Under the pieces are notes generated by a model that saw only the letters and a program-made list of their open reading frames with translations, ran no database searches and had not been told where the DNA came from. A program made the position numbers and the translations under genes. Below, one piece after another: positions 1 to 15,712 of a stretch of 17,173 nucleotides of DNA. The DNA is from a virus (taxonomy: Duplodnaviria; Heunggongvirae; Uroviricota; Caudoviricetes), in IMG/VR virus record IMGVR_UViG_2675903324_000013, one strand, 5' to 3'. How positions within the stretch are numbered: position 1 is the stretch's first letter; each line of letters opens with the position of its first letter.

Positions 1-1230
1 ATGAGCAGAGCACTTAACAAACTGAGCGATACACAGCTGAGGAAAATCAACGGCACACCCGCCCAAAAAACAGCCTTTCTTAATGACGGTGGAAACCTGA
101 GCGTCAGGCATTCAACCAGTGGCCTTTTAACCTGGTATTTCACTTACAGGGCCGGAACGGGAAGGGGGGCACCACCGGAACGCATTAAGCTGGGAAATTA
201 TCCTGATCTGAGCCTGAAATCAGCCAGGGAAAAAGCCGCCCAGTGTCGCGCATGGCTGGCAGAGGGGAAAAATCCACGTCATGAAATGAATTACACCGTA
301 CAGGAAGCGTTAAAGCCGGTAACGGTTGGCGATGCGCTCACCTACTGGCTTGAGTCGTACGCAAAGGAAAACCGTGTGGATTATGACCCACTGAAAAAGC
401 GGCTAAATAATCACGTAATACAGCACATTGGCCCTATGCCGCTGGATAAATGCGAGCTACGGCACTGGCTGGCCTGTTTTGATCGGGTGGCAAAGAAAGC
501 CCCTGTTTCCGCCGGGTTCCTGCTACAGACATGCAAGCAGGCGCTTAAGTTCTGCAGGAAGCGGCGCTATGCAATCAGCAACGTTCTTGATGATATGAGT
601 GTGGCGGACGTTGGGAAAAAACCGGATATAAGTGAGCGTGTCTTAAGTAACAAAGAACTTGGCGAATTATTGCAGGCACTGGACAAAAAAATATTTTCCC
701 CTTACTACGTCGCACTAATCCGCCTCCTGATTGTTTTCGGATGCCGGACAGTAGAACTGAGGTTATCGGAGATCGGCGAGTGGGATTTTACCGAAATGCT
801 CTGGACCGTTCCGAAGGAGCACAGCAAAACGAAGGTAGCCATATTCCGGCCCATACCGGAAGCGATACTGCCGTTCGTCACGCAGCTGGTGGAGCAGAAC
901 AGGCACACGGGCTTATTGCTGGGGGAAGTGAAACAGGAAACCAGCGTATCGCAGTACGGCAGATTAGCGCACAGGAGGCTAAAACACCCTCAATGGTCAT
1001 TGCATGACATCCGGCGCACCTTTACAACCATGCTGAACGATTTAGGCGTTGATCCTCACGTCGTGGAGCAGCTTACAGGCCACCAGATGCCAGGAATGCA
1101 ACGCGTGTACAACCATTCCCGCTATATTGATGCGAAACGCAATGCGCTTGATATGTGGGTGGAGCGGTTGGAGATACTGGCGGGAACACATGAAAACGTA
1201 ACCACGCTACCAGTAACCAGAATAAAATAA
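1..1230 (+). CDS. int: Tyrosine recombinase / integrase, P4 (CP4-57) type
   Basis: 409-aa ORF starting at window base 1. C-terminal catalytic region carries the tyrosine-recombinase signature residues (…LHDIRRTFTT…, …GHQ…, …VYNHSRY…). Followed by an AlpA gene as in P4-like islands. Confidence 0.9.
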   Translation: MSRALNKLSDTQLRKINGTPAQKTAFLNDGGNLSVRHSTSGLLTWYFTYRAGTGRGAPPERIKLGNYPDLSLKSAREKAAQCRAWLAEGKNPRHEMNYTVQEALKPVTVGDALTYWLESYAKENRVDYDPLKKRLNNHVIQHIGPMPLDKCELRHWLACFDRVAKKAPVSAGFLLQTCKQALKFCRKRRYAISNVLDDMSVADVGKKPDISERVLSNKELGELLQALDKKIFSPYYVALIRLLIVFGCRTVELRLSEIGEWDFTEMLWTVPKEHSKTKVAIFRPIPEAILPFVTQLVEQNRHTGLLLGEVKQETSVSQYGRLAHRRLKHPQWSLHDIRRTFTTMLNDLGVDPHVVEQLTGHQMPGMQRVYNHSRYIDAKRNALDMWVERLEILAGTHENVTTLPVTRIK

Positions 1231-1247
1231 TTTTTTTCGTGTTTTTT

Positions 1248-1263
1248 CAGTATGCGCATACTG
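1248..1263. promoter_or_regulatory. 16-bp perfect palindrome CAGTATGCGCATACTG just downstream of int stop
   Basis: Reverse complement is identical to the sequence itself; lies in the int-alpA intergenic region. Confidence 0.35.
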
Positions 1264-1279
1264 GATAAGTGCACAGATA

Positions 1280-1319
1280 CAACGTGAAACAATGTGCAAC
1301 AACGTGACACAATCACGAA
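1280..1319. repeat. Four tandem 10-bp phased repeats (caacgtgaaa / caatgtgcaa / caacgtgaca / caatcacgaa)
   Basis: Directly visible with exact 10-bp periodicity between int and alpA; candidate binding array for a recombination-directionality factor or regulator. Confidence 0.5.
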
Positions 1320-1419
1320 CAAGAGGCCAAAAAGAATACAGATTTGTAAGTTGCTGATTTTTAATGCTCAGCTGGTTTTTTATACATTAGTGAATTACGC
1401 GTTAAAGCGTGCGAAAAAA

Positions 1420-1448
1420 GGCATAAAACAAGATTTTATGCCTTTGTA
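1420..1448 (+). terminator. Intrinsic terminator-like hairpin downstream of int
   Basis: 9-bp stem GGCATAAAA / TTTTATGCC with loop CAAGA, A-run before and T-rich tract after, so it could act in both directions. Confidence 0.5.
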
Positions 1449-1604
1449 TTAACATGAATTTAAATGATTTTATCCTGATTATTCCTCTTTCTGTAAACCA
1501 TGCGACACCAACATTTGCCAACTCTGAATCATCCTGACACAATCAGACACATCCCAACGCAATAGAACACGAAATAACTCTTTAAGAAACGAAAGGGGGC
1601 AATA

Positions 1605-1793
1605 GTGTTAAGCACTGATCGGTTTATACGTGAAAAAGAATGCGAAAAGCTAACAGGCCTTAGCCGCTCATGCCGCTACCGCCTGGAAAAGGCCGGACAA
1701 TTCCCATCACGTCGTAAACTTGGTGGGCGTTCTGTTGGCTGGTCTTTATCTGAGGTTTTGGCCTGGAAGGATAGCTGCAAGGCAGTTCACTAA
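1605..1793 (+). CDS. alpA: AlpA-family phage regulatory protein (small HTH activator / excisionase-like)
   Basis: GTG start 5 nt after a GGGGG Shine-Dalgarno; 62 aa with the AlpA pattern …LTGLSRS.RYRL…GQFP…KLGGRSVGW…EV..W. Confidence 0.85.
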   Translation: MLSTDRFIREKECEKLTGLSRSCRYRLEKAGQFPSRRKLGGRSVGWSLSEVLAWKDSCKAVH

Positions 1794-1937
1794 AAAGACT
1801 GGCGGCACACAGTCGCCACACATCCACTAATACAGAGATATAACTATGAAGATTGAATATGCGCCCGAACGTGGGCGGGGATTCGTTCGCCCTGGTGAAA
1901 CTGAAAAACAACAAAATTGGGGTTTTTCAGGCATAAA

Positions 1938-1968
1938 AAAAGCGGCCCCGATATGGAGCCGCCTTTCT
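1938..1968. terminator. Bidirectional terminator-like hairpin between alpA and the minus-strand switch genes
   Basis: A-run, stem AGCGGC / GCCGCC (one wobble), 11-12-nt loop, then T-rich sequence; on the minus strand the stem is followed by TTTTTTT. Confidence 0.45.
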
Positions 1969-2036
1969 GAACAATTAACCTGCTGCGCCTTATGTGTATG
2001 TGATCCCAAACATAAGCACGGGAATGATAGCCGCTA

Positions 2037-2240
2037 TCAGGCTGGTGGGCAATTACCTTGCTTGTTGGGGCCGTATTGTGCTGCCATTTTCATCCGTTCA
2101 GAACGTGAATATTTTTTTAGAAACTCATCAAGGACAAAAGCGCATGGAGCGAATCTTTCTGATTCATGCTCGAGCGCCATATTTTCGTGCTCTCTGTTCG
2201 TTTTTTGCGATGGTGTATTGGTTGATTCTTTATTGGTCAT
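2037..2240 (-). CDS. Hypothetical small protein, MTN… paralogue 1 (67 aa), possibly degenerate
   Basis: ORF whose start codon and first codons sit inside a 59-bp block conserved with the start of ORF 2698..2925 (both begin MTN); no clear Shine-Dalgarno; A-rich strand. Confidence 0.25.
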   Translation of the reverse strand: MTNKESTNTPSQKTNREHENMALEHESERFAPCAFVLDEFLKKYSRSERMKMAAQYGPNKQGNCPPA

Positions 2241-2293
2241 TGTGTGTACCTGTAAAGCAATGCGCCGGAGTTCCTCACGCCACGGCGCTGATG
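2235..2293. repeat. Conserved 59-bp block, copy 1 (ggtcat…ctgtaaagcaatgcgccg…cctcacgccacggcgctgatg)
   Basis: About 90% identical to 2920-2978; contains a 6-bp stem GCGCCG / CGGCGC with a 15-nt loop; spans the MTN start codon on the minus strand. Confidence 0.6.
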
Positions 2294-2297
2294 TTTT

Positions 2298-2402
2298 TTA
2301 TTCTTTGGGTTCAATACCGCGTTGCTGTAATTCTTTTCGGATTATTCGTTTTATCCAAGCTGCTAAAGAGTCATCACCGTCTTGTTGTTGTGCTTTTTCC
2401 AT
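2298..2402 (-). CDS. Very small ORF (34 aa, MEKAQQQDGDDSLAAWIKRIIRKELQQRGIEPKE); possible remnant of the C-terminal helix of an RHH-like repressor
   Basis: Occupies the same position relative to the conserved block as the RHH-like gene 2983..3162; weak C-terminal similarity (AAW/AAM…IKR…R); weak RBS. Confidence 0.15.
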   Translation of the reverse strand: MEKAQQQDGDDSLAAWIKRIIRKELQQRGIEPKE

Positions 2403-2465
2403 CTTTTCCCGTAAGTCAGGATCTAAACGGAACTGGAAAGGAGGATTACCACGCCTTTCATTTTT

Positions 2466-2520
2466 GTGTGTTGACACGTCAATTACACTCCATATAATGT
2501 GTTTATGTGTATATACACAT
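2466..2520 (+). promoter_or_regulatory. Near-consensus sigma70 promoter TTGACA (2471-2476), 16-bp spacer, TATAAT (2493-2498), flanked by GTGT-N4-ACAC operator-like sites
   Basis: Hexamers read directly. GTGTgttgACAC at 2466-2477 overlaps the -35; a 16-bp perfect palindrome ATGTGTATATACACAT at 2505-2520 overlaps the predicted transcription start. Confidence 0.5.
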
Positions 2521-2544
2521 TACACACAACTAGCACAAAAAACA

Positions 2545-2578
2545 ACGCCCCGCAGTGATGGGAACACATACGGGGCGT
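2545..2578 (-). terminator. Conserved stem-loop, copy 1: 8-bp GC-rich stem ACGCCCCG / CGGGGCGT with 18-nt loop; followed by a T-tract on the minus strand
   Basis: Homologous to 3293-3325 with one compensatory base-pair change in the stem and a near-identical loop (…GGAACACATA…). Confidence 0.4.
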
Positions 2579-2697
2579 CTAACCAAACCATTAATTGAGG
2601 TAACGATTATGGCTATAAAAGAGCATAGCTTACTCTTTATACACACACAAACGCCCCGGAAACGGAATAATCCGTTTCATAGTTCGGTTTTGTGTAC

Positions 2698-2925
2698 TCA
2701 TCCTGGCGGGCGATTCTTACGGGACTTTAGCCGCCGTGGGCAGCTTGCTAAAAATGCCTCCAACGCGAATAGTCCAGGTTTCATTTCTATCGGTATTAGT
2801 TGGATATTCAGAGGATTAGCCAGTTCGGCTTCAAGGCGAGCACAGGTTTCTAACTGCCTTTGCCGAATGATTTCATCTTCTTGCGTCTGCGTGTCTTGTA
2901 TTGGTGATAGTGTGTTGTTGGTCAT
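2698..2925 (-). CDS. Hypothetical small protein, MTN… paralogue 2 (75 aa)
   Basis: Start codon inside conserved block copy 2, directly downstream of the RHH-like gene on the same strand and in the same frame phase; helical-looking segment EDEIIRQRQLETCARLEAELAN. Confidence 0.35.
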   Translation of the reverse strand: MTNNTLSPIQDTQTQEDEIIRQRQLETCARLEAELANPLNIQLIPIEMKPGLFALEAFLASCPRRLKSRKNRPPG

Positions 2926-2978
2926 GGTACTGCCCTGTAAAGCAATGCGCCGTAGTACCTCACGCCACGGCGCTGATG
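2920..2978. repeat. Conserved 59-bp block, copy 2
   Basis: Same stem GCGCCG / CGGCGC (2947-2952 / 2968-2973); differs from copy 1 mainly in the loop and flanks. Confidence 0.6.
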
Positions 2979-2982
2979 GTGA

Positions 2983-3162
2983 TTATTCTGATTCTTTGGT
3001 CTTGCGGCGCTGGCGGCGTTTGATTTCGCCGCGCATGGCTGCGTTTATAAACTGCCCCGTGCTTTCACCTTCTTCTTTCACGTTCTCCATGCCTTCAATA
3101 ATTTCATGGGCAATACGTGCAGTTACAGATTGTGATTTTGCATTCTTTGGACCCGTTGCCAT
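2983..3162 (-). CDS. Putative ribbon-helix-helix (CopG/Arc/MetJ-like) DNA-binding protein; candidate switch repressor
   Basis: ATG at 3162 preceded by GAGGGG with 6-nt spacing. 59 aa with an N-terminal basic beta-strand (SQSVTARIA) followed by two helices (HEIIEGMENVKEEG / TGQFINAAMRGEI) and a basic tail. Operator-like boxes lie immediately upstream. The six-frame track start at 3201 lacks an RBS. Confidence 0.4.
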   Translation of the reverse strand: MATGPKNAKSQSVTARIAHEIIEGMENVKEEGESTGQFINAAMRGEIKRRQRRKTKESE

Positions 3163-3183
3163 GTTTAACCCCTCATGTTTTTG

Positions 3184-3264
3184 GTGTAAGACAATATACA
3201 CGAAAAAAAAATATTTTGAAGGGTTGACGTGTAAGACACCGTTATTTTACATTGTGTCTTACAC
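3184..3264. promoter_or_regulatory. Divergent promoter-operator region: three GTGTaagACAC boxes and back-to-back promoters
   Basis: Boxes at 3184-3193, 3229-3239 and inverted at 3254-3264. Leftward promoter: -35 TTCAAA / 16 bp / -10 TATATT (complement of 3193-3220). Rightward promoter: -35 TTGACG (3224-3229) with a weak -10 (TTACAT or TACATT) about 17-18 bp downstream. Confidence 0.45.
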
Positions 3265-3292
3265 CTTGTTAATGCAAGGTACAGAAAAGACG

Positions 3293-3325
3293 AAACCCCG
3301 CAGTGCTGGAACACATACGGGGCTT
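3293..3325 (-). terminator. Conserved stem-loop, copy 2: stem AAACCCCG / CGGGGCTT with 17-nt loop; T-rich tract on the minus strand
   Basis: Homologue of 2545-2578; lies in the 5' leader of the rightward operon and upstream of the leftward promoter. Confidence 0.4.
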
Positions 3326-3354
3326 CTAACCAACAACGTAAACTAGGAGCCGTT

Positions 3355-3552
3355 ATGGTTGCTGTAAATCATATACCACACCTTGTACACACACAAACTG
3401 CCTTTGTGTGGCGTTTTCTGGCACTGAGTGCCGGAGAATCTCAAATCATCCACGTCACCGCCTGGACGGAACGCGAAGCGCGTAGCCGTTGCCCGTCCGG
3501 TTGTGTTGCTGTATTTGCCGCCCGTATTCGTCAGGAGGTGCGCCATGATTAA
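3355..3552 (+). CDS. Hypothetical protein (65 aa), first gene of the rightward small-ORF operon
   Basis: AGGAG 6 nt upstream of the ATG; stop overlaps the next start (ATGATTAA); the first ~15 codons are conserved with a degenerate copy at 2609. Confidence 0.4.
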   Translation: MVAVNHIPHLVHTQTAFVWRFLALSAGESQIIHVTAWTEREARSRCPSGCVAVFAARIRQEVRHD

Positions 3553-3757
3553 TCTGTCACTTACTGACCTTAACCGCATTCAGTTTCGTGAGAAATTCAC
3601 AGGGCAGCTACTGGTCAATGTGGATAAAGGTCGCGTGGTGTGTAATTACTACTTACCAGATGAAGCAATTGTCGCCACAAGGGAATCATTACAGGAAATC
3701 ACAAAACGTGCCGGAATGATTAACACGAATATTCAGGGGATGCTTTATGCACAATAA
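3545..3757 (+). CDS. Hypothetical protein (70 aa)
   Basis: ATG at 3545 preceded by AGGAGG; the six-frame track ORF 3428..3757 has an upstream start without an RBS. Confidence 0.45.
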   Translation: MINLSLTDLNRIQFREKFTGQLLVNVDKGRVVCNYYLPDEAIVATRESLQEITKRAGMINTNIQGMLYAQ

Positions 3758-3986
3758 AACCACACCGGACGCAGCCGCCGAAGCCATCAAAACGCTGATG
3801 CACGCGCTGATTGATATTTCTGTTATCGCGGACAGGGCACATAAGCACGCCACCAGCGAAACAGAATATGCCGGGGCTTTCGTTCCTCACTCACTGGCTG
3901 TTATGCAATTTAGTGCTGATATGGCACTGAATGAGGCTAAAACCATCCTGATTACTGATTGTGAAAATGGGGGGGGTTATGCGTGA
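3747..3986 (+). CDS. Hypothetical protein (79 aa)
   Basis: ORF with GGGGA RBS; short overlap with its neighbours, consistent with an operon. Confidence 0.5.
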   Translation: MHNKTTPDAAAEAIKTLMHALIDISVIADRAHKHATSETEYAGAFVPHSLAVMQFSADMALNEAKTILITDCENGGGYA

Positions 3987-4212
3987 TGATCGTTTTAATT
4001 CCCTGAAACAAGAATTTTCCGGCGTTCCTGATGATGCGGCTGATGCGCTTTCGTCAATGCCAGAACTTATTAGAGCGGCTTTTTTCTTACTTTCCACGAA
4101 AGAATATAAATCAACGGGACTTGATGTACTGAATATCGCCGCCGATTATGCGGAATATGTGGCAGAGGCGCGTTACAGAAGAAAATTTCCTGAGGATGTA
4201 AGCCATGCGTGA
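3979..4212 (+). CDS. Hypothetical protein (about 77 aa; start uncertain, alternative GTG at 3961)
   Basis: ATGCGTGA overlap with the upstream stop; G-run RBS. Confidence 0.4.
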   Translation: MRDDRFNSLKQEFSGVPDDAADALSSMPELIRAAFFLLSTKEYKSTGLDVLNIAADYAEYVAEARYRRKFPEDVSHA

Positions 4213-4438
4213 TATTTATCTTGAAACAATAGACCGCGCATCACTTGCACTTTCTCACAGTGAAAACATGATGGAAATATTGCGGATGTGCCTTGAATCC
4301 TTTGGCGATAATGAACGTAATGCAAAAAAAACGCGGATTATTACATCATTAATAACGCTTCTTGAGCCTGTAATAAATGAGTTGCAGGAAATAGAGACAT
4401 TGCACGACAGATATAACGAACAGCACACCGGAGAATAA
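4205..4438 (+). CDS. Hypothetical protein (77 aa)
   Basis: Same ATGCGTGAT start context as the previous gene (coupled translation). Confidence 0.5.
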   Translation: MRDIYLETIDRASLALSHSENMMEILRMCLESFGDNERNAKKTRIITSLITLLEPVINELQEIETLHDRYNEQHTGE

Positions 4439-4443
4439 AAATA

Positions 4444-4743
4444 ATGAAACTTAAATATTCTGGCTTAACTGCCAGTGGCAACACTCACCCTAAATTTACG
4501 CGCGGTGATATTTACCGCGACCAGTACGGCGGCACGGTAATGATTAAGGGCGTGGCGGGACGGTGCGTAACTTACCGCCGTGAAGGTTACGAATATGATT
4601 GCGTGATGCCTGTTTATCAGTTCCGGCGTGATTTTTCTCTGGTACAGACCGCGCCGCATAACGTGCCCACCAGCAACGCCAGGGCACGGGCAAACATCCA
4701 GAAGCTGAAAACCATGATTAACGGATTCAGGGGCAAGAAATGA
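4444..4743 (+). CDS. Hypothetical protein (99 aa)
   Basis: GGAGAA RBS; stop overlaps the rep start (ATGA). Confidence 0.5.
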   Translation: MKLKYSGLTASGNTHPKFTRGDIYRDQYGGTVMIKGVAGRCVTYRREGYEYDCVMPVYQFRRDFSLVQTAPHNVPTSNARARANIQKLKTMINGFRGKK

Positions 4744-6137
4744 AAAGCGCACCGAACTTAAAAAAACAGCCTTACGACAAGATGACCGAAGTCATCATTT
4801 TTGCGGGTAGTGATGCGTGGGCACATGCGAAACAGTGGCAGGAACAGGACGGGCGACTGGCTGGCGATAATGTGCCTCCCATTGTGCTGGCTGATGATCA
4901 ACTGGATGAACTGGCAGACCTGAGAATCATCGACGAGGGGCGCTATTGTGTCCGGCTGTACAAGGCAGGCCACATCAGGCCATCAAATATTAATGCCATT
5001 GCGCACAAGCTGGCGGCGGCGGGCGTAACTGATGCGAATTATTACCCCGAAGGGATACACAGCCAGAAGCGGGAGAACTGGCGCGAATATCTGGAACGGG
5101 AGCGGGGGAAAAAGCCAGGGGAAGAACACCACCAGCGAAAAACCACGCTACCGATGAGCGTTGGATCTGCCGGATATGACACGCAATTAGATTACGTGGT
5201 AAAGGGGATTATTCCGGCATCGTCGCTATGCAGCATATACGGGGCAAGCGGTTCCTATAAATCATTCCTTGCGGGTTCGTGGGCGTGTCACGTTTCCACG
5301 GGCCGCCAGTGGGGAGGCCGCAGGGTGGCGCATGGCGCTGTTCTCTATGTGGTTGGTGAAGGCGGTATCGGCGTTCCGCGTCGTGTAAAAGCCTGGGAGG
5401 TTGTGCACGGTGAGCAGGTGAAAAATCTGTATCTGGTAAACCGTCCAGTTTTTCCGGCTGTCCCGCTTGATGTTGATGAACTGGTTATCGCTGCCCGTCA
5501 GGTGGAGCGGGAAACGGGTAAACCTGTACGCATGATTATTCTTGATACTCTGGCGCGTTGCTTTGGTGGCAATGATGAAAATGATTCCCGTGATATGGGG
5601 GCGTTTATCCGTGGGTGTGACGAGCTTAAACGGCGCACAGGGGCCACGGTGCTGGTGGTTCACCATTCCGGCAAGGATGAGACGAAAGGCGCGCGCGGTT
5701 CCAGTGCATTTCGTGCTTCGCTGGATGCTGAATACCGGATACGCAGGGAGGACGCAGGAAGCGAAGCGCTGGTTATCTCATGCACCAAAATGAAGGACGC
5801 GGAGGAACTCAAAGAGGCTGCCTATGATTTGCGGGTGGTGGAGCTTTTTACCGACGCTGACGGGGAGTTAATCACGTCGCTGGTGGTGGTGGATAAGCCG
5901 CGCCCTCCCGTTGAACTGGAGCGCATCGAGGAGGCAGGCAACAAGACGGAAAACCATACCGCACTATGGGGGTGCATCCGTTCACGCACACAGAACGGCG
6001 ACAAGTGCACGATCCCGCTGTTACGTGATGACATGAAACGGCTTGGGTATGACGTGAAAAATATGCGGCGATGGTTAGCCAAACTGGAAAAAGACGCCGT
6101 GATTTACATTGATGGTGATGATGTAGGACCACTGTAA
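4740..6137 (+). CDS. Replication protein: RepA-like / AAA_25-type RecA-fold ATPase with C-terminal presumed DNA-binding region
   Basis: P-loop-like motif GASGSYKS (non-canonical), Walker-B-like RMIILDTLAR, and LVVHHSGKDETKGARGSSAF typical of RepA/AAA_25 helicase-loader proteins; immediately followed by an iteron array. Confidence 0.65.
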   Translation: MKSAPNLKKQPYDKMTEVIIFAGSDAWAHAKQWQEQDGRLAGDNVPPIVLADDQLDELADLRIIDEGRYCVRLYKAGHIRPSNINAIAHKLAAAGVTDANYYPEGIHSQKRENWREYLERERGKKPGEEHHQRKTTLPMSVGSAGYDTQLDYVVKGIIPASSLCSIYGASGSYKSFLAGSWACHVSTGRQWGGRRVAHGAVLYVVGEGGIGVPRRVKAWEVVHGEQVKNLYLVNRPVFPAVPLDVDELVIAARQVERETGKPVRMIILDTLARCFGGNDENDSRDMGAFIRGCDELKRRTGATVLVVHHSGKDETKGARGSSAFRASLDAEYRIRREDAGSEALVISCTKMKDAEELKEAAYDLRVVELFTDADGELITSLVVVDKPRPPVELERIEEAGNKTENHTALWGCIRSRTQNGDKCTIPLLRDDMKRLGYDVKNMRRWLAKLEKDAVIYIDGDDVGPL

Positions 6138-6340
6138 AAAGTGAGTAGCAAAAGTGAGTAATGGTGAGGTTTTTACAAAATATTAACACGATTACTCACT
6201 TTCTCACCTGTATACATACTCAAAAGTGAGGAGTAAAAAAATGCTTATGAAACATGCACATATAAAACACGAAAATCTCAAGCGAGACGAAGTGAGACGC
6301 GTTAAAAAGTGAGGCGTAAAAGTGAGCGCGAGTGAGGAGA
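6137..6340. repeat. Iteron array, putative origin of replication: about 10 copies of AAAGTGAG(G/T) in both orientations
   Basis: GTGAG at 6141, 6154, 6164, 6226, 6292, 6309, 6322, 6332 and inverted CTCAC at 6195, 6203; spacings of 10 and 13 bp; AT-rich stretch in the middle; directly downstream of the Rep gene. Confidence 0.55.
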
Positions 6341-6348
6341 TAACCAAA

Positions 6349-6591
6349 ATGCGCAGAGACAGAACAGCGCCAAAATATAAAGCGTTAGACATGACAGAGC
6401 ACGCTTTAAAGGTGGCAATCAGAACGATAGACCGCCACGCGGGGGAAGGATACGCGAAGGAACATCCCGACCTGATAAGCGCATTCATGACCACAGCGGC
6501 GGCAAACTTTGCCACGCTGACAGAACGGGAGATTGCCGAAGCGGAACAGGTAACAACCATCAACGTTAAAACCGGAGAGGTGGAATCATGA
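6349..6591 (+). CDS. Hypothetical protein (80 aa)
   Basis: ATG at 6349 with GAGGAG 9 nt upstream; the track start (GTG 6322) lies inside the iterons. Confidence 0.45.
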   Translation: MRRDRTAPKYKALDMTEHALKVAIRTIDRHAGEGYAKEHPDLISAFMTTAAANFATLTEREIAEAEQVTTINVKTGEVES

Positions 6592-7569: not shown

Positions 7570-7591
7570 GAATATCAGAACCACACCACGC

Positions 7592-7967: not shown

Positions 7968-7986
7968 GTTATTTTTTGTAAATTAT

Positions 7987-8226: not shown

Positions 8227-9384
8227 ATGCCGAGAATAATCGAATTACGCCAGCAGAAAACCGCCATTAAAAATCAGATGCGCGACATGCTGGAGAACGC
8301 GGAAAAAGAAAACCGCAGTCTTAACGATGCTGAGGGCGCAAAATTTGACGAATTACGCGCTAAAGCTGAATCCCTCGATAAAGACATTTCCCGCCTTGAA
8401 GCCATTGCAGACGAAGAGCGCAGCAAGCCAGGTAAAAGCAGCCAGACCACTGACCCCGCAGAACTACGCAGCTACATTCTGACAGGTGAAACCCGCGCAT
8501 TAAGTACAGGCGTTCCCGCTGATGGTGGTTATACCGTTATCCCCGAACTGAACACCGAAATCATGCGAATGCTGGCGGATGAGTCCACCATGCGCCGCAT
8601 CTGTACCGTGAAAAAAATCAGCAGCAACGAGTTTAAGCAGCTTGTTTCCGCTGGCGGTGCGACCGTTAACCACGGTGAAGAGGGTAAGGCACGCGAACAG
8701 ACCAGCACCCCGCAGATTAACGAGGTGAGCATTAAGCTGTATCCGGTCTATGCGTACCCGCGCACCACACAGGAAATCGTGGATTTTTCCGATGTGGACA
8801 TCCTTTCATGGCTGACGGGTGAGATTGGCGACACCTTCACGGAAACCGAAGAAAGCGATCTGGTTGTGGGCGACGGTGACAAAAAAGCAAAAGGTTTTTT
8901 ATCCGTACCCCGTGCAGAGAAGAACGACAAAGAGCGTGATTTTGGTACGTTGCAGGTAATTAAACCTTCCGAATCTCTGGCGTGGACATCTGCGGACCCG
9001 CTGATCGACCTGAAATTTGCATTACGTAAAAAATACCGCAAAAACGCGGTCTGGGTGGTTAACTCCACGACGGCGGCAAAACTCCAGAAGGTGAAGAACG
9101 CGAACGGTGATTACATCTGGCGTGACCGTTTACAGGCGGGTGATCCTGATACGTTGCTGGGCCTTCCGGTCGAATATCTGGAGTTTATGCCTGATAACGT
9201 TATTGCCCTGGGTGACTTCAAACGCGGTTACTACATTGTTGATCACGAAACAGGTGTTCGCACCAGACCGGACAACCTCACAGAGCCGGGCTTCATCAAA
9301 ATTTTCACGCAGAAATATTTAGGCGGTGGCGTGGTGGATTCGAACGCGATCAAGATTCTGGAACTGCCACAGGACGACGATTAA
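8227..9384 (+). CDS. Major capsid protein, HK97 fold, with N-terminal coiled-coil delta domain
   Basis: 385 aa; coiled-coil N-terminus (IELRQQKTAIKNQMRDMLENAEKE…) and a C-terminal region paralleling HK97 gp5 (…VWVVNSTTAAKL…GDYIW…LLGLPVEYLEFMP…GDFKRGYYIVDHETG…). Confidence 0.9.
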   Translation: MPRIIELRQQKTAIKNQMRDMLENAEKENRSLNDAEGAKFDELRAKAESLDKDISRLEAIADEERSKPGKSSQTTDPAELRSYILTGETRALSTGVPADGGYTVIPELNTEIMRMLADESTMRRICTVKKISSNEFKQLVSAGGATVNHGEEGKAREQTSTPQINEVSIKLYPVYAYPRTTQEIVDFSDVDILSWLTGEIGDTFTETEESDLVVGDGDKKAKGFLSVPRAEKNDKERDFGTLQVIKPSESLAWTSADPLIDLKFALRKKYRKNAVWVVNSTTAAKLQKVKNANGDYIWRDRLQAGDPDTLLGLPVEYLEFMPDNVIALGDFKRGYYIVDHETGVRTRPDNLTEPGFIKIFTQKYLGGGVVDSNAIKILELPQDDD

Positions 9385-9423: not shown

Positions 9424-9996
9424 ATGGGTGAAAAAATTATGAAGAGTATGGAAATCCGGTCATCGGAAATCACCACCAGCGGCAGCAACACGCTTACAGG
9501 CTACGTTGTTCGCTGGGATAAGCTTTCAGAACTGTTATGGGGTGAGTTTTACGAAAAATTCCAGCGGGGGGCGTTTACTGAATGGCTTGCGGCGGGTAAT
9601 GACGTTCGCGGCCTGTATGAGCATGACCACAGTATGTTACTGGGGCGCACCCGTTCCGGCACGCTGAAACTGGAAGAGGATGAAACAGGGTTACGCTTTG
9701 AACTGACCCCACCGGATACCAGTACAGGGCGCGACGTTATCGAACTGGTTAAACGTGGTGATATATCCGGCATGAGCTTTGGCTTTCGCTCCCGTAAGGA
9801 TGTATGGGATACCACAACAGATCCATGCGTGCGCACCGTGCTGGTGGCGGAACTGTACGAAATTACCGTTACATCGGTACCGGCTTACCCCGATTCCGGC
9901 GTGGAGCTGGCCCGCCGTTCCCTGTATGAGCAGCACCCCGAAAAAATGCCGCGTGCGGATAATCGCCGCTGGTGGGTGGATTTAGCGGGGGTGTGA
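9424..9996 (+). CDS. Prohead maturation protease, HK97 family (S78/U35)
   Basis: 190 aa with …LTGYVVRWD…FQRGAF…LYEHD…LLGRT…L.LEEDE.GL.FE…ISGMSFGF…VPAYP…; exact start among ATG 9424, 9439 or 9448 is uncertain. Confidence 0.85.
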   Translation: MGEKIMKSMEIRSSEITTSGSNTLTGYVVRWDKLSELLWGEFYEKFQRGAFTEWLAAGNDVRGLYEHDHSMLLGRTRSGTLKLEEDETGLRFELTPPDTSTGRDVIELVKRGDISGMSFGFRSRKDVWDTTTDPCVRTVLVAELYEITVTSVPAYPDSGVELARRSLYEQHPEKMPRADNRRWWVDLAGV

Positions 9997-9997: not shown

Positions 9998-11209
9998 ATG
10001 TGGCCTTTCAGAAGAAAAAAAGAGCAGCGCAGCATGACGCTTGATGAATTTATGGCGCTGGCTGGCACATCGAACACGGGGGCGGGTGAGTACGTATCAT
10101 CGGGGACAGCGGAATCACTGCCTGCCGTCATGAACGCCGTTACGGTCATCTCTGAGGCGGTGGCTACCATGCCGTGTTACCTGTACCTGGTACGCAATGA
10201 GAAGGGGAAGGAGGCCCGCGAGTGGCTTGATTCTCATCCGGTCGATCACATCCTCAACGAGCGCCCGAACGCATGGCAAACCCCCTACCAGTTTAAGCGA
10301 ATGATGATCCGCCACTGCCTGTTAAACGGTAATGCTTATGCGGTTATTCAGTGGGGGCGTGATGGTTTTCCGGCGGCTTTACATCCTTACCCGCCGCAGT
10401 CGGTGAACGTGGAGCAGACAGGCGAACACAACTGGCGCTATTGCATCACTGACGCCTACACCGGAAACACCCACAACTATTTACCGTGGGAAGTACTTCA
10501 CCTTCGTTACTCCACGGATGACGGCTTTATGGGGCGCTCACCTGTAACCATCTGCCGCGAATCGCTGGGGCTTGGGCTGGCCCAACAACGCCACGGCGCG
10601 AGCGTGATGCGTGATGGCATGATGGCGGCAGGGGTTATCACGTCAGGCGAATGGCTGGACGGCGTGAAGGGCAAACAGGCATTAGCCGCACTGGAACGCT
10701 ACAAAGGGGCCAGAAACGCCGGAAAAACGCCCATCCTTGAAGGGGGGATGAGCTATCAGCAGCTGGGCATGAGTAATCAGGATGCTGAATGGCTGGCCTC
10801 CCGTCGCTTTACCATTGAAGACATCGCCCGAATGTTCAACGTCTCGCCGATTTTTTTGCAGGAATACAGCAACAGCACCTACAGCAATTTCAGCGAGGCA
10901 AGCCGCGCATTTCTCACCATGACGATGCGCCCGTGGCTGGCGAACTTTGAGCAGCAGATAAAAAACGCCCTGCTGGTGGCCTCGCCTGTACCTGGTATCC
11001 GGTATCAGGTGGAGTTTGACAGCGCGGACCTGTTACGGGCCACACCTGGCGAACGCTTTGCCACCTATGAGCGCGGCATCAAATCCGGCGTTATGTGCCC
11101 GAACGAAGCCCGCGAACGTGAAGGACTGTCACCGCGTGATGGTGGTGATGAGTTCAGTCAGGCATGGAAACAGGAAGTAAAAATCAGCGAGGGAGAAAAA
11201 CCGGAATGA
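9998..11209 (+). CDS. Portal protein, HK97 family
   Basis: 403 aa; GGGGG RBS; motifs …LLNGNAYAVIQW…, …GRSP…, …ARNAGKTPILEGG…, …IEDIARMFNVSPIFL…, …NEAREREGLSPRDGGDE. Confidence 0.9.
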   Translation: MWPFRRKKEQRSMTLDEFMALAGTSNTGAGEYVSSGTAESLPAVMNAVTVISEAVATMPCYLYLVRNEKGKEAREWLDSHPVDHILNERPNAWQTPYQFKRMMIRHCLLNGNAYAVIQWGRDGFPAALHPYPPQSVNVEQTGEHNWRYCITDAYTGNTHNYLPWEVLHLRYSTDDGFMGRSPVTICRESLGLGLAQQRHGASVMRDGMMAAGVITSGEWLDGVKGKQALAALERYKGARNAGKTPILEGGMSYQQLGMSNQDAEWLASRRFTIEDIARMFNVSPIFLQEYSNSTYSNFSEASRAFLTMTMRPWLANFEQQIKNALLVASPVPGIRYQVEFDSADLLRATPGERFATYERGIKSGVMCPNEAREREGLSPRDGGDEFSQAWKQEVKISEGEKPE

Positions 11210-11544
11210 ACATAGGGCGACTGCGTGACAGGATAACGATTCAGACCCTGAAACAGACCAGAGCCATGACGGGCGAAATACTCGAAACGTGGGAGGACGG
11301 TCACACACTCTGGGCAAGCGTGAACATGATCAGCAGCAAGGAGGCCATTTCATCGGGCGCAGAGCTGGCGATTGGTACCGTAAGGATCTGGATACGGTAC
11401 CGGAAGGACATCAACGCCACCAGCCGGATAAAGGTCAGTACGGGGCCGCTGGCGGGGCGTGTACTGAATATCATCGGGCAGCCGTTGCCGGATGTCGCCA
11501 GGACACGCCTTGAAATTCTTTGTCGTGAGGGCGCGGAAAAATGA
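11206..11544 (+). CDS. Head-tail joining / head closure protein (Phage_H_T_join-like)
   Basis: ATGA overlap with the portal stop; pattern …GRLRDRITIQ…GE..E.W.D…WASV…IRYR…RI…LEILCRE. Confidence 0.7.
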   Translation: MNIGRLRDRITIQTLKQTRAMTGEILETWEDGHTLWASVNMISSKEAISSGAELAIGTVRIWIRYRKDINATSRIKVSTGPLAGRVLNIIGQPLPDVARTRLEILCREGAEK

Positions 11545-11837
11545 CAGAAGAACTTATCACCCTGGAAGAAGTGAAACTCCATTGCCGTATCGATGGAGAC
11601 GAGGAAGACCAGTTAATCAGCGGATACATTGCCGCATCGCTTGAGGCGTGCCAGATACACATAGGCAGGCGCTTTGATGACGGGCTGGAGTTCACGCCAG
11701 CCATAAAGATTGGCTGCATGATGTTTATCGCTCACCTGTATGAGAATCGCCAGATTGTCGCGGATAACGCAAAAACACGCGTACCCATGACGATTGGCGC
11801 ACTCTGGACGGCTTACCGTGATGTGGGGGTGTACTGA
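11541..11837 (+). CDS. Head-tail connector protein, gp6-like
   Basis: …LEEVKLHCRIDGDEEDQLISGYIAAS…AHLYENRQ…, typical of gp6-like connector proteins; GAGGG RBS. Confidence 0.7.
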   Translation: MTEELITLEEVKLHCRIDGDEEDQLISGYIAASLEACQIHIGRRFDDGLEFTPAIKIGCMMFIAHLYENRQIVADNAKTRVPMTIGALWTAYRDVGVY

Positions 11838-12277
11838 TGCCGTGGCAACCATTAAGACGATGCACAGAACCAGGCTGTAACAGGCGCGTTAAATCCGGCA
11901 AGTGTGAGGAGCACAGGCGGGCGGCATGGCGTGCAGAGGATGCCAGACGAGGACACCGCCGCGCGCGTGGATATTCCAGACAGTGGGACAAATACCGCGC
12001 CATGTATCTGAGTAAAAACCCGTTATGCGTGCGATGCCTTGAGAAGGGGATATATACGCCCGCCGTGGTGGTGGATCACATTATCCCGATTAATGGCGGT
12101 GATGATGTTCTCTTCTGGCCCGAATGGAACCATCAACCATTGTGCCAGGCGTGTCATAACCAGAAAACGAAATGGCTTGATCCGGCAACAAAAAGCAAGC
12201 GTGCCGCAGGTGGATTTCGTGAAGAGGAAGAACGGGCCGCTAACCGCAATAACTGGATGTATGACGCTGATGAATGA
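11837..12277 (+). CDS. HNH endonuclease (packaging-associated)
   Basis: Cys-rich N-terminus and …CVRC…VVDHIIPINGG…NHQPLCQACHNQKT…; GGGGG RBS; located just upstream of terS as in HNH-dependent cos packaging systems. Confidence 0.85.
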   Translation: MPWQPLRRCTEPGCNRRVKSGKCEEHRRAAWRAEDARRGHRRARGYSRQWDKYRAMYLSKNPLCVRCLEKGIYTPAVVVDHIIPINGGDDVLFWPEWNHQPLCQACHNQKTKWLDPATKSKRAAGGFREEEERAANRNNWMYDADE

Positions 12278-12454
12278 GCGGGAACAAAACCGCCTTATCC
12301 GTGGACTTATAAGGCAGCGTGACGCATGGAAGACACAGGAAACAGGGCATAAAGATAAAGCGTCAGGACGCGCAGAACGCATCACAGCGAAGCGATTAAC
12401 CGACCGTGACCGCGAGGTTATGGAATGTTTCCGCAATCGCTGATGAGGCTGTAT

Positions 12455-12540
12455 GACGGGGTGGGGGGCGTTTTCAGGACAAACCCGACCCCGCCGGGCA
12501 CCGAACGCCTCCTCAAATTTTTATGCACGGGAATTTTTTG
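12455..12540. other. Candidate cos / packaging recognition region between HNH and terS
   Basis: GC-rich blocks GACGGGGTGGGGGGCG and CCCGACCCCGCCGGGC followed by an AT-rich tract; position inferred from known HNH-TerS-cos arrangements. Confidence 0.25.
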
Positions 12541-12566
12541 AAAAATAATCTGGCGAAAAAATAAGC

Positions 12567-12923
12567 ATGTCAAGACCACCGAAAGCCCCCGCCTACCTGG
12601 ATGATATCGCCGTGAAGCAGTGGCGGGAAAAATCTAGGCAGCTTGCGGAACGGGGAGACCTGACCCCCGCCGACTGGAGCAATCTGGAACTGTATTGTGT
12701 CAACTACTCCATTTACCGGAAAGCCGTTGCAGACCTTGCGGCGCGCGGGTTCAGCATTGTTAACAGTCAGGGCGGTGAGAGCAGAAACCCCGCATTAAGC
12801 GCAAAATCCGACGCTGAAAGAGTGATGATAAAAATGGCCTCTTTGCTCGGTTTTGACCCGATAAGCCGCCGTAAAAATCCACCGGAAACAGAAGAAGAGG
12901 ACGAGCTTGACCGCCTGGAATAA
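12567..12923 (+). CDS. Terminase small subunit (P27-family-like)
   Basis: 118 aa, …NLELYCVNYSIYRKAVADL…NP…LGFDPISRR…, acidic C-terminus; immediately precedes TerL. Confidence 0.75.
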   Translation: MSRPPKAPAYLDDIAVKQWREKSRQLAERGDLTPADWSNLELYCVNYSIYRKAVADLAARGFSIVNSQGGESRNPALSAKSDAERVMIKMASLLGFDPISRRKNPPETEEEDELDRLE

Positions 12924-14568
12924 GTACGCAGAAGACGTAAAAACGGGCAAAATTCCGGCCTGTAAACGGCTGAAACAGGCCGTTAAACGGTACTTTTCGG
13001 ACCTTGAAAGCCCCCTTTACACGTTCGATCGTGAGGTTGTGGAGCGGTTTATTGCCTTTTCCAGGGTGTGCCCGCACGTAAAAGGGCCGATGCGTGGCAG
13101 ATCCATTGAGCTGGAGCCGTGGCAGCAGTTCGCCTTTGCGTGCATCCTCGGCTTTAAGGTTAAGGCCACCGGACGGCGCAAATACACGAGCGCCTTTATC
13201 GAAGTGCCGCGCAAAAATGCGAAATCCACGACCGCCGCGATTCTGGCTAACTGGTTTCTGATTATGGAGAACGGGCAGCAGGATATTTACACCGCAGCGG
13301 TGAGCCGTGACCAGGCGCGGATCGTTTTTGATGATGCGCGTCAGATGTGCCTTTTATCCCGACCGTTACGCAGGCGGGTGAATATTCAGGCCCACAAGGT
13401 GATGCACCCGAAAAGCAACAGCCTGTTAAAGCCGCTGGCAGCAAAAGCGGCAACCATCGAGGGCACAAACCCAAGCCTTTCCATCGTGGACGAATACCAC
13501 CTACACCCCGATAACGGCGTTTATTCCGCGCTTGAGCTGGGGATGGGCGCACGTCCCGAAGGGCTGTTATTTGCCATTACCACATCGGGCAGTAACGTCG
13601 TTTCAGCCTGTAAGCAGCACTATGATTATTGCTGCCAGATCCTGGACGGCGAAGAGGTCAACGATTCAATTTTTGTGCTGATTTACGAGCTGGACGACGA
13701 AAACGAGGTTGATGATCCGGCGATGTGGATAAAGGCTAACCCTAACATCGATGTTTCCGTGGATCGTGAAAAACTGGCCTCAACCATCCAGAAAGCGCGG
13801 GGTATTCCGTCGCAATGGGTGGAGATGATGACAAAGCGATTTAATATCTGGTGCCAGGGGGCTACCCCGTGGATGGGTAACGGCGCATGGGCTGAGTGTG
13901 CCGGAACGTTCACGGAGGAAGATTTACACGGGCAGGAGTGTTACGCGGGGCTGGACTTATCATCAACCAGCGATATTTCCAGCGTGTGCTATGCCTTTCC
14001 GGTCGGTAAAAATATCATGCTGGTTTCCCGTCATTATCTGCCGGAGTTCCAGCTACAGAACCCCGCCAATAAAAACCGCGCTGTCTATCGCCAGTGGGCT
14101 AAAGCGGGCTGGATACGCACAACGCCAGGTGACTGCATTGATTACGACCGGATCAGAGATGACATCATGCAGGATGCGGAGAAATTTAATATCAGGCTGG
14201 TGGGCTTTGATACGTGGAACGCCACGCATCTCAGGACGCAATTACAGGGGGCTGGTTTTGAGGTGGAGCCGTTCCCGCAAACCTACCTCAGATTCAGTCC
14301 GGCGGCGAAATCGTTCGAAGTTTTTGTTAACCGCAGGGTGATTGTGCATCGTGGCGATCCGGTGTTGTCCTGGTCGATGAGTAACGTCGTGATGCAGAGT
14401 GACGCGAACGCCAATATCAAGCCGAACAAGAAAAAATCACCGAACAAGATAGACCCGAGCGTAGCGGCGCTGATGGCGTTTGGTACATTCCAGGCAGAGC
14501 ATGAGGATTTTGCTTTTGATATAAGCGACAGCCACCGCCAGAAACTGGAAGAATTTAGCGGGGTGTAA
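12907..14568 (+). CDS. Terminase large subunit (ATPase-nuclease)
   Basis: 553 aa; apparent TTG start at 12907 overlapping the terS end by 17 nt, with AGAGGA upstream; N-terminal pattern …W..YAEDV.TGKI…, then ATPase and nuclease-like regions. Confidence 0.9.
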   Translation: MTAWNKYAEDVKTGKIPACKRLKQAVKRYFSDLESPLYTFDREVVERFIAFSRVCPHVKGPMRGRSIELEPWQQFAFACILGFKVKATGRRKYTSAFIEVPRKNAKSTTAAILANWFLIMENGQQDIYTAAVSRDQARIVFDDARQMCLLSRPLRRRVNIQAHKVMHPKSNSLLKPLAAKAATIEGTNPSLSIVDEYHLHPDNGVYSALELGMGARPEGLLFAITTSGSNVVSACKQHYDYCCQILDGEEVNDSIFVLIYELDDENEVDDPAMWIKANPNIDVSVDREKLASTIQKARGIPSQWVEMMTKRFNIWCQGATPWMGNGAWAECAGTFTEEDLHGQECYAGLDLSSTSDISSVCYAFPVGKNIMLVSRHYLPEFQLQNPANKNRAVYRQWAKAGWIRTTPGDCIDYDRIRDDIMQDAEKFNIRLVGFDTWNATHLRTQLQGAGFEVEPFPQTYLRFSPAAKSFEVFVNRRVIVHRGDPVLSWSMSNVVMQSDANANIKPNKKKSPNKIDPSVAALMAFGTFQAEHEDFAFDISDSHRQKLEEFSGV

Positions 14569-14581
14569 TGAGGTCAGCAGC

Positions 14582-14863
14582 ATGACAGAAGCCGAAATAC
14601 TGCGATTAATCCGCCGCGTCTCTGGAATCAGCCAGCAGGCTGACGAACAGACCACGCAGCCGGACAGCGTGACAGCCGAAAATTATGCGCGTGTTGTTGC
14701 TGAGGTGATGCGCCGTGATGGTATCCAGCTTAATGATGCGGATATGCGCGACATACGGATCCGCGTTCTGGAAATGCTGGCCTACAATCGCCGCGTTGAA
14801 CTGTATCGGGAGAAGGAGAAAATCACGTACCACTGGAAGAAGCCGGAGCGGTTACGGCGGTAA
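14582..14863 (+). CDS. Hypothetical protein (93 aa), terminal gene of the island
   Basis: GAGG RBS 8 nt upstream; the stop overlaps the first copy of the CGGCGGTAACT repeat. Confidence 0.5.
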   Translation: MTEAEILRLIRRVSGISQQADEQTTQPDSVTAENYARVVAEVMRRDGIQLNDADMRDIRIRVLEMLAYNRRVELYREKEKITYHWKKPERLRR

Positions 14864-15135
14864 CTTGTTGATTAAAAGGCGGCTCAATTCTGAGCTGGGT
14901 AGCTGACGGCGGTAACTGTTTGATATTCCCGATAACGCAAAATTGCGCTGACTACATCCCTCACATCTGAGGACTGTTAACCAGCAGGCCGGAATATATT
15001 CACAAACTACGAAATTTTCGTAGTTTAATTACTCGCCAGTTTATCGTTAACTAGTTGATATTTTCGGAAACCTCAATTTGAGGAAGTCGGCGCGGTAACT
15101 GTTTTATATTCCCGATAGCGCAAAAATGCGCGGTC
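14854..15135. repeat. Direct repeats R1 (14854-14873, partial), R2 (14905-14952) and R3 (15089-15135) sharing CGG(C)GGTAACTGTTTkATATTCCCGATArCGCAAAAwTGCGC; candidate att copies
   Basis: R2 and R3 match over about 40 bp with 2-3 differences; each carries the near-palindrome CGCAAAATTGCG; palindromes CTACGAAATTTTCGTAG (15007-15023) and CCTCAATTTGAGG (15071-15083) lie between them. Confidence 0.5.
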
Positions 15136-15160
15136 GGGCAGAATGAGCACCACCTCAATC

Positions 15161-15195
15161 GTGACGGAGAGTGACAACCAGTGACACACCGTGAC
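15161..15195. repeat. Four GTGAC pentamers in exact 10-bp phasing (gtgacggaga gtgacaacca gtgacacacc gtgacaaaaa)
   Basis: Read directly; similar GTGA-containing 10-bp phased array near int at 1280-1319. Confidence 0.55.
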
Positions 15196-15248
15196 AAAAA
15201 GACGGTTTAACCGTTCATTAAAAATCGACGTGATTTTGTGCTTTCCGG

Positions 15249-15272
15249 ATGACGTGGCCAACGTCATTTTTT
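15249..15272 (+). terminator. Intrinsic terminator-like hairpin (stem ATGACGT / ACGTCAT, loop GGCCA, then T6)
   Basis: Read directly; no annotated plus-strand gene ends here. Confidence 0.4.
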
Positions 15273-15712
15273 AGCGAAAAATTCTGATTAAGGTCACTGG
15301 CTGAATGGTCATAATGACCACGCAGACCATCGAGGCAACCATAGCGATCATCGTTACGGTTGGAGCTTTTCCGCCATTGGTGGAAAAGGTGCACATCTGG
15401 ATCATCATTACGGTGATCAAGGGTATGTAAAACCCACCAGCCTGATTAAAGGTTAACCGGAAAAAAAATCCGGTAGCCCCGTTATGGGGATCCCCATATC
15501 GACATTAACGCCCCTCATGAATTGGTGCGCTTCCCCCTGGAAAGATTACCCGCCTGTATATTTCTTGTGTCTATTTGTTCCACGTTGTTTCATACAGTGC
15601 ACCGAACGGTGTAGTTAATGGTGTAGTCAATTTGCGATTTTTGGCACTTTTTCAATGATAATTGTTTAATTAAATCAATGGCTTGACCTGGTATAGTGAT
15701 AAAAGGACATAT

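Follow-up and report, generated by a model that had tools for sequence, protein, structure and literature searches.

The 17,173-nucleotide stretch of DNA that we analyzed (IMG/VR record IMGVR_UViG_2675903324_000013; hereafter, the window) very probably carries an integrated capsid-forming phage-inducible chromosomal island (cf-PICI), which is an allelic variant of EcCIEDL933 and lies at EcCIEDL933's own site, between roxA and phoQ. Judging from its genes, this is a self-capsid satellite of E. coli of about 15.9 kb that takes only tails from its helper phage, and its kind has already been described: cf-PICIs were named as a family by Alqurainy et al. (bioRxiv 2022, 10.1101/2022.09.08.507074). 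The prototype, EcCIEDL933, is found in E. coli O157:H7 EDL933 (Alqurainy et al., 10.1101/2022.09.08.507074; He et al., bioRxiv 10.1101/2025.02.11.637232). An earlier note on this DNA had proposed a satellite that builds its own capsids and borrows the tails of a helper. Our reading of the genes confirms that observation as a whole and supports the satellite interpretation, as the window encodes all 11 cf-PICI components and the island is allelic to an experimentally proven element. What the earlier note missed is that this type of element already has a name and has been characterized. The sequence itself holds nothing contrary to the cf-PICI reading.

The model that we used for cf-PICIs is that of SatelliteFinder (PMC10085698), which requires 11 core components and forbids tails and holins. 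All 11 components were detected among the open reading frames (ORFs) of the window, with strong Pfam scores and in a single orientation, and the six-frame ORF listing and Pfam show the window to be a near-continuous array of plus-strand genes. At one end of the island is a P4-type tyrosine integrase of 409 amino acids with an arm-binding domain (1-1230, plus strand; Pfam Arm-DNA-bind_3, 5.5e-18, and Phage_integrase, 2.4e-16). It is adjoined by a regulator of the AlpA/MerR/Stl type, namely a 62-amino-acid AlpA (1605-1793, plus strand; Pfam Phage_AlpA, 5e-18). The primase-replicase component is a RepA-type initiator/helicase of 465 amino acids (4740-6137, plus strand; Pfam AAA_25, 4.7e-44, with PHROG primase/helicase matches), which has its own origin in the iterons at 6135-6340. 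A single-strand DNA-binding protein (SSB) follows (6912-7322, plus strand; Pfam, 1.4e-15). The P4-type int/alpA pair, the RepA-like replicase with adjacent iterons, and the SSB of the earlier note were all recovered.

The same is true of the complete HK97-type head and packaging set that it had listed (capsid protein, protease, portal, two connectors, HNH, TerS, and TerL): each of these genes has a Pfam match, and all of them are on the plus strand. The major capsid protein has the HK97 fold and 385 amino acids (8227-9384; Phage_capsid, 1.6e-61), of which 382 are identical in EcCIEDL933; it matches PDB entry 9gyi (7e-255), and the next PDB match is the capsid of RcGTA. It is followed by an S78-family prohead serine protease (9424-9996; Peptidase_S78, 4e-48; 98% identical to the prototype's), the portal (9998-11209; Phage_portal, 2.3e-90; 401 of 403 residues identical), a 112-amino-acid head-tail adaptor, or head closure (head completion) protein (11206-11544; Phage_HCP, 1.1e-22; 112 of 112), and a gp6-like head-tail connector of 98 amino acids (11541-11837; Phage_connect_1, 8.4e-12; 98 of 98). 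The island has its own packaging enzymes as well, each of them 98-99% identical to the prototype's: the HNH endonuclease, a packaging accessory (11837-12277; Pfam HNH, 1.8e-08; 145 of 146), TerS of the P27/Terminase_4 family (12567-12923; Pfam, 1.3e-23; 117 of 118), and TerL (12907-14568; TerL_nuclease, 1.6e-50, and TerL_ATPase, 1.3e-25; 98%). As had also been claimed, tail, tail-fibre, and lysis genes are missing: no ORF of the window matched a tail, fibre, holin, or endolysin family in Pfam, PHROGs, or PADLOC. Finally, the packaging genes are distant from those of true phages. TerL is at most 36% identical to anything encoded by a full-length phage genome; identities above 60% come from records that have the size of a satellite (10-17 kb) and from the final ~16 kb of the 106-kb record PQ569648, which resemble a satellite. 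This distance agrees with the point made in the cf-PICI paper that these modules are distinct from phage ones.

The resemblance to EcCIEDL933, which we assessed gene by gene with BLASTP rather than by aligning whole islands, extends to the roxA-phoQ site, the core of the attachment (att) site, the arm repeats, and the gene order. Eleven proteins (Int, AlpA, the capsid-to-TerL set, and the last ORF) are equal in length to those of EcCIEDL933, with no frameshifts; Int is 95% identical and AlpA is 98% identical. The last ORF encodes a conserved hypothetical protein of 93 amino acids (14582-14863, plus strand; phrog_1561, 1.5e-55; 94% identical to the prototype's copy). The two islands are not the same throughout, however. 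The island in the window is about 15.9 kb and the prototype is 15.4 kb; the window encodes the 465-amino-acid RepA/AAA_25 protein where the prototype has a 710-amino-acid DUF927 protein; SSB and the PerC-family regulator are only 82% and 79% identical; and the window has small minus-strand ORFs (Arc-like and YlcI/YnfO-like) after alpA, additional small early ORFs, and a different repeat copy number in the right arm.

Much is known about how the prototype works. EcCIEDL933 is induced by the helper phages HK106 and HK446 through alpA, builds PICI-sized capsids from its own proteins, and packages itself exclusively, via its own HNH, TerS, and TerL; it depends on each of its own packaging genes and needs only tail genes from the helper (Alqurainy et al., 10.1101/2022.09.08.507074). 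Later work found that its capsid is T=4 and measures 47.5 nm and that the adaptor and the connector decide tail compatibility (He et al., 10.1101/2025.02.11.637232). AlpA is the helper-activated inducer in Gram-negative PICIs, and mutating alpA in the prototype abolished induction and transfer (Alqurainy et al., 10.1101/2022.09.08.507074). Because the head and packaging module of the window is 98-100% identical to that of EcCIEDL933, we infer that this allele would also be induced by a helper phage through alpA, form small capsids of its own, package only itself, and depend on the helper for tails alone. And because the adaptor and the connector are 100% identical to the prototype's, we predict that its tail compatibility is of the HK106 type rather than the HK022 type.

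The following scheme takes its steps from the prototype and applies them to the allele in the window by near-identity. The island would be quiescent in the chromosome until a helper siphophage (of the HK106/HK446 type in the case of the prototype) activates alpA. AlpA would then drive Int-mediated excision at the GGACATATTT core and switch on the rightward operons. The RepA-type initiator/helicase, along with the island's SSB, would replicate the excised circle, starting at the iteron origin that lies just past rep, and the island's capsid protein, protease, and portal would form small T=4 procapsids. TerS, TerL, and HNH would cut concatemeric DNA at a cos site specific to the island, which probably lies between the HNH gene and terS, so that only island DNA is packaged. 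Finally, the adaptor and the connector would complete the head and attach a helper-made tail to it, with no other structural part of the helper being used.

The ends of the island can be placed by comparison with other genomes, among them OkiPb01685, which is the nearest (99.2% identical across the whole window; L001 in the coordinates below), EDL933 itself (L002), and a relative that is integrated at tqsA (L003). The earlier note had suggested a comparison with island-free E. coli across the roxA-phoQ interval. In K-12, this interval is an empty site of 75 nucleotides, and aligning it with the attL junctions of OkiPb01685 and EDL933 and with the right junction of the window defines a 10-bp core, GGACATATTT, which is present as a direct repeat at both junctions of the island. 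In the window, the attR core is at 15705-15714, so this and not 15700, as first given, is the right end of the island. The core overlaps the stop codon of phoQ (15713-15715) by 2 nucleotides, and phoQ (15713-17173, minus strand; Pfam, 2.7e-87) directly adjoins attR, which agrees with the insertion beside phoQ that had been described. Position 1 of the window is the ATG of int, and in both OkiPb01685 and EDL933 the attL core lies 181 nucleotides upstream of this ATG; the left att site is thus outside of the window, as had been stated, and our size of about 15.9 kb uses the left arm of the nearest genome. The window contains no tRNA or tmRNA gene and therefore this is not a tRNA-site island. In that respect, the remark that phoQ is not a typical tRNA site stands, but the implication that the site is unusual does not, as it is the prototype's own. 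In OkiPb01685, the island is flanked by roxA/pepT/potABCD on the left and by phoQ/phoP/purB on the right.

Past the stop codon of phoQ (15705-15715), the native sequence gives way entirely to that of the island, so that in carriers the 3' untranslated region of phoQ is island sequence. About 15.9 kb also comes to lie between roxA and phoPQ, and if there is any read-through coupling from roxA to phoPQ, it would be broken in carriers.

Among 5,426 complete E. coli genomes, 60 have the whole element when coverage of at least 80% is required. Because so few genomes carry it, the element is accessory and not part of the core genome; the possibility that these genes are conserved core genes, which the earlier note had left standing, is also contradicted by the empty site in K-12. 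The 60 carriers are of diverse origins and their copies are 94-99% identical. The packaging module is more widespread (407 of the 5,426 genomes). In another strain, a near-identical element is found inside tqsA (L003) and its Int is 90% identical; the element is thus mobile as a whole and can change its attachment site. So, although the window does not add a new kind of element, it adds a natural variant of the best-studied cf-PICI, and the prototype's packaging module is seen to travel with at least two replication modules and with two integrase specificities (roxA-phoQ and tqsA).

Similarities to other known systems suggest several other explanations. The head and packaging genes are phage-derived, and the island shares with HK97 and with HNH-dependent cos siphophages (such as HK106) an HK97-fold capsid protein, protease-dependent maturation, a portal, a gp6-like connector, and the HNH + TerS + TerL set for cos packaging. 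The island might then be what is left of an HK97-like temperate prophage after decay, immobile and stripped of tail, lysis, and immunity genes. Indeed, islands of this kind have historically been annotated as cryptic prophages. We consider this highly improbable. The packaging ORFs are all intact and equal in length to those of an element that is proven to be mobile; hundreds of genomes share this compact architecture of about 15-16 kb, which occupies more than one att site; Int, alpA, and rep belong to the PICI type and not to the lambdoid one; and TerL is far from that of any full-length phage. Also, helper-dependent, high-frequency transfer in small capsids of its own has been shown for the prototype, whose module is 98-100% identical. 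Unlike HK97-type phages, the prototype forms a T=4 rather than a T=7 capsid, without the capsid crosslink, and unlike either HK97- or HK106-type phages, the window has the gene order capsid-protease-portal ... HNH-TerS-TerL and does not have tail, lysis, or lysogeny-switch genes. The correct annotation for this island is cf-PICI, not cryptic prophage. We also rejected an ordinary, complete temperate siphophage, as neither the window nor the sequence beside the island in near-identical genomes shows a tail module, a lysis cassette, or a CI/Cro-type immunity region. (According to the earlier note, tail or lysis genes immediately beyond the window would point to an ordinary prophage; there are none on either side of the island in OkiPb01685.) A gene-transfer agent, which was raised by the PDB match to the RcGTA capsid, was rejected because int, att sites, rep and its origin, and a cos-type terminase set of its own are all present.

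Could this instead be a P4-like satellite, or a classical PICI that forms no capsids but remodels those of its helper? Like P4, the island has a P4-family integrase, an AlpA-type regulator, and a helper-dependent life style; and like the classical PICIs EcCICFT073 and EcCIED1a, it has an int-alpA-rep left half, a rightward organization, PerC homologues, interchangeable Pri-Rep alleles, and a non-phage attachment site (Fillol-Salom et al. 2018, PMC6092414). Yet the window encodes its own capsid protein, protease, portal, adaptor, connector, and TerL, and neither P4 nor the classical PICIs do. Classical PICIs redirect the capsids and the terminase of the helper, and the portal, adaptor, and connector, all three of which are present here, are forbidden in the PICI model (PMC10085698). 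P4 uses the capsid protein, cos, and terminase of P2, and it encodes Sid, Psu, and Delta. In the window, no ORF matched Psu, Sid, Delta, or a P4 alpha-type primase in Pfam or PHROGs, although we did not confirm that these libraries have profiles for every P4 marker. We regard either of these identities as next to impossible.

The remaining alternative is that the element is a cf-PICI by descent but that this allele is impaired, for example by the swap to an incompatible replicon or by the extra cassette after alpA, and persists only by vertical inheritance. Its Rep shares just the N-terminal ~122-125 residues with the prototype's, and the region 1846-3346 is rearranged. Nevertheless, this is highly unlikely. 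The RepA module and its iterons are intact and occur in 558 complete genomes, which implies that the module works and circulates; four interchangeable Pri-Rep alleles are known from E. coli PICIs; and the whole element is maintained at 94-99% identity in 60 diverse genomes and is known from a second att site. We therefore return to an allele of EcCIEDL933 as the explanation, and we note what weighs against it: its replication module is unlike the prototype's; its alpA-proximal region carries a different and partly antisense cassette; what we say of its function would follow from its genes, by near-identity to the prototype; its attL and left flank are taken from 99%-identical genomes and not from the window; and its cos site is placed by deduction.

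The replication module is one of the two main differences from the prototype. In OkiPb01685, the replicase is annotated as "helicase RepA family." The stop codon of rep is followed directly by about 10 (A/G)GTGAG iterons, which occur in either orientation on the two sides of an AT-rich stretch (6135-6340), and from these repeat families and from direct reading of the sequence we take this region to be the replication origin. Only the N-terminal ~122-125 amino acids of RepA are related to the DUF927 protein of EDL933, at 68% identity (window 4740-5105 versus L002 4039-4413). The same N-terminal DNA is also joined to "DNA primase family" genes in other genomes. The common N-terminal domain looks like an adaptor domain, or like a joint at which recombination swaps replicons. 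In the 558 genomes that have the RepA module and its iterons, the module often lies at other loci, and four Pri-Rep alleles are known that E. coli PICIs can interchange (Fillol-Salom et al. 2018, PMC6092414). As the module is widespread and the Pri-Rep alleles are known to be interchangeable, the replacement of DUF927 by RepA is an ordinary modular exchange.

The region after alpA is the other main difference. EDL933 has a different sequence where the window carries a cassette of small minus-strand ORFs (2037-2240, 2298-2477, 2698-2925, and 2983-3201), which we recognized from PHROG matches, repeated non-coding junctions, and negative AT skew. The matches are to an Arc-like repressor (phrog_228), phrog_21027, and phrog_949 (YlcI/YnfO-type). 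Three of the four ORFs are annotated on the minus strand in OkiPb01685 (2037-2240, 2298-2477, and 2983-3162), one of them as YlcI/YnfO family, and 2698-2925 is unannotated. The junctions are repeated (2230-2304 with 2915-2989, and 2534-2586 with 3282-3333), but the proteins are not paralogues, so the repetition is confined to non-coding sequence. Consistent with minus-strand genes, the AT skew after alpA (~1846-3346) is negative, opposite to the rest of the island. Two plus-strand ORFs in this region (1846-2598 and 2555-3346) have no family matches, run against the reversed AT skew, and overlap minus-strand ORFs that do have PHROG matches; only their first ~66 amino acids are conserved relative to EDL933 and the remainder is Cys/Ser-rich. 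We rejected them as genes and they are probably spurious. From its ORFs, the minus-strand cassette (2037-3201) is best described as an accessory or regulatory module, and the region as a whole (2037-3346) could be a repressor or switch or could be toxin-antitoxin-like. A perfect sigma-70 consensus promoter lies inside the cassette on the plus strand (2471-2498).

Motif scans revealed a conserved 11-mer box, AACAACGTGRA. Counting matches with up to one mismatch in three island variants (the window with the left arm of OkiPb01685 as a proxy, EDL933, and the tqsA element), we found the box at five positionally conserved sites. These are the attL arm (L001 5926-5936, in the proxy left arm); the int-alpA spacer, where tandem AACAAYGTGMA boxes are phased at 10 bp (1278-1322, plus strand) and keep their position in EDL933 and the tqsA relative; the start of the early operon, just ahead of which is AACAACGTAAA (3332-3342, plus strand); the region upstream of the capsid operon (7984-8021, minus strand), with an exact AACAACGTGGA at 8001-8011 and the same position in EDL933 and the tqsA element; and the attR arm, with another exact AACAACGTGGA (15579-15589). 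The corresponding positions are 255, 1627, 2916, 7898, and 15483 in EDL933 (L002) and 4924, 6277, 8317, 12647, and 20202 in the tqsA element (L003). In 49 kb of EDL933 sequence there are six matches, and five of them fall at the conserved sites.

Both att arms also contain a tandem GGTGTAGTTAAT repeat, at L001 5957-5980 on the left and, as GGTGTAGTTAAT/GGTGTAGTCAAT, at 15608-15631 on the right. In the tqsA element, these repeats are changed: both left units are GGTGTAGTCACT (L003 4953-4976), and the right arm has GGTGTAGTCACT and GGTGTAGTCATT. The N-terminal arm-binding domain of its Int is also heavily substituted, with most of the differences in the first 60 residues. In contrast, its AlpA is 100% identical and its boxes are unchanged. 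Because the Int domain and the arm repeats covary while AlpA and the boxes stay constant, the GGTGTAGT repeats would be arm-type sites for Int and the boxes would be sites for AlpA. This covariation comes from a single comparison, with the tqsA element. We think it likely that the GGTGTAGTTAAT tandem repeats serve Int as arm-type sites and vary together with the specificity of the integrase. That the AACAACGTGRA box is the operator of AlpA is a tentative proposal, with the chances somewhat below even. If AlpA does bind the boxes, then a single small protein, acting at both att arms as a directionality factor, would link excision to the activation of the early operon and the late packaging operon. 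The pattern of boxes and arm repeats thus gives a testable guess at how AlpA and Int divide the labor of excision and induction. We found no description of sites of this type in the cf-PICI and PICI literature that we consulted, so the conserved box is possibly undescribed.

A putative cos site lies in the gap between the HNH gene and terS (12444-12566), where a G/C-rich GACGGGGTGGGGGGCG ... CCCGACCCCGCCGGGC is followed by an AT-rich stretch. In HNH-dependent cos phages, cos lies between hnh and terS. The DNA of cf-PICIs carries cohesive ends. The window, EDL933, and the tqsA element are 100% identical across the gap, and the ends of LR881103, a linear, particle-derived relative of 16.5 kb, map to ~12480 and ~12545. 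From these alignments, cos is probably within the gap. Just before it, between the HNH gene and TerS, is a 60-amino-acid ORF (12261-12443, plus strand; phrog_3173, 9.2e-36) whose DNA is identical in EDL933. Given the gene order, with the numbering set by 1786 being the capsid gene, this ORF probably corresponds to gene 1792 of the prototype, and mutating gene 1792 severely reduced transfer (Alqurainy et al., 10.1101/2022.09.08.507074).

As for the other genes of the island, the early operon (3355-4743, plus strand) consists of small ORFs, including an Ash-like fragment, an Icd-like protein, unknowns, and a DUF4222 protein (PHROGs 340, 2512, 2196, and 285, and product names in OkiPb01685). The DUF4222 gene is at 4444-4743 (plus strand; Pfam, 2.1e-23). 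Between the iterons and the SSB gene are two conserved hypothetical ORFs on the plus strand, 6322-6591 (with a probable ATG at 6349; phrog_1231, 4.7e-52) and 6588-6902 (phrog_27268, 8.5e-74), with matches to families of no known function. The PerC-family regulator (7333-7569, plus strand; Pfam PerC, 2.5e-32) comes after SSB, and a hypothetical 74-amino-acid ORF (7711-7935, plus strand; phrog_1957) lies between perC and the capsid operon. This ORF is bracketed by near-identical, terminator-like hairpins (AGCCGGAGCAATCCGGCT plus a T-run) at 7592-7609 and 7946-7963 (regions 7586-7613 and 7940-7967), in a window where promoter and terminator scans overall gave hits at or below the expectation from shuffling. 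Possibly this ORF forms an insulated mini-cassette; alternatively, the hairpins may serve as a target for anti-termination. Overall, the small ORFs to which no function is assigned here match only PHROGs whose function is regulatory or not known. PADLOC identified no defense system among the unclassified ORFs of the window; we discounted a marginal match of a 67-amino-acid ORF to Cas8g (6e-4). Many E. coli genomes, those of O157:H7 and O55:H7 among them, also have the 93-amino-acid ORF downstream of terL at a different locus and unaccompanied by the packaging module; this ORF is probably shared with classical PICIs.

The right arm (14864-15704), which we studied by repeats, by alignment to EDL933 and the tqsA element, and by motif scans, is non-coding. 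Repeats of about 40 nucleotides (CGGTAACTG..TGATATTCCCGATAACGCAAAATTGCGC) lie at 14909, 15044, and 15092, and it is their copy number that differs from EDL933. Rfam gave no match to the whole window at gathering thresholds or to the right arm at E<=1, and so we set aside a known sRNA or type I toxin-antitoxin RNA as the content of these 840 nucleotides. On the minus strand, at ~15300-15380, is a conserved and very hydrophobic mini-ORF (M-I/F-A/V-M/V-V-A-S/L-MVCVVIMTI...).

Lastly, the GenBank "phage" records with the closest TerL proteins (68-82% identity) are LR881103.1, OR544138.1, OR544139.1, and PQ569648.1 (in its last ~16 kb). Those of 10-17 kb show, or probably have, a cf-PICI layout. 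The order in LR881103 is TerS-TerL ... int ... primase ... capsid-protease-portal-connectors-HNH, and the 765-amino-acid "tape measure" protein that is annotated after its TerL is probably a cargo gene or a misannotation. PQ569648 is a poorly annotated Klebsiella "phage" record of 106 kb that closes with a complete cf-PICI-like block, and it may be an assembly concatenation.

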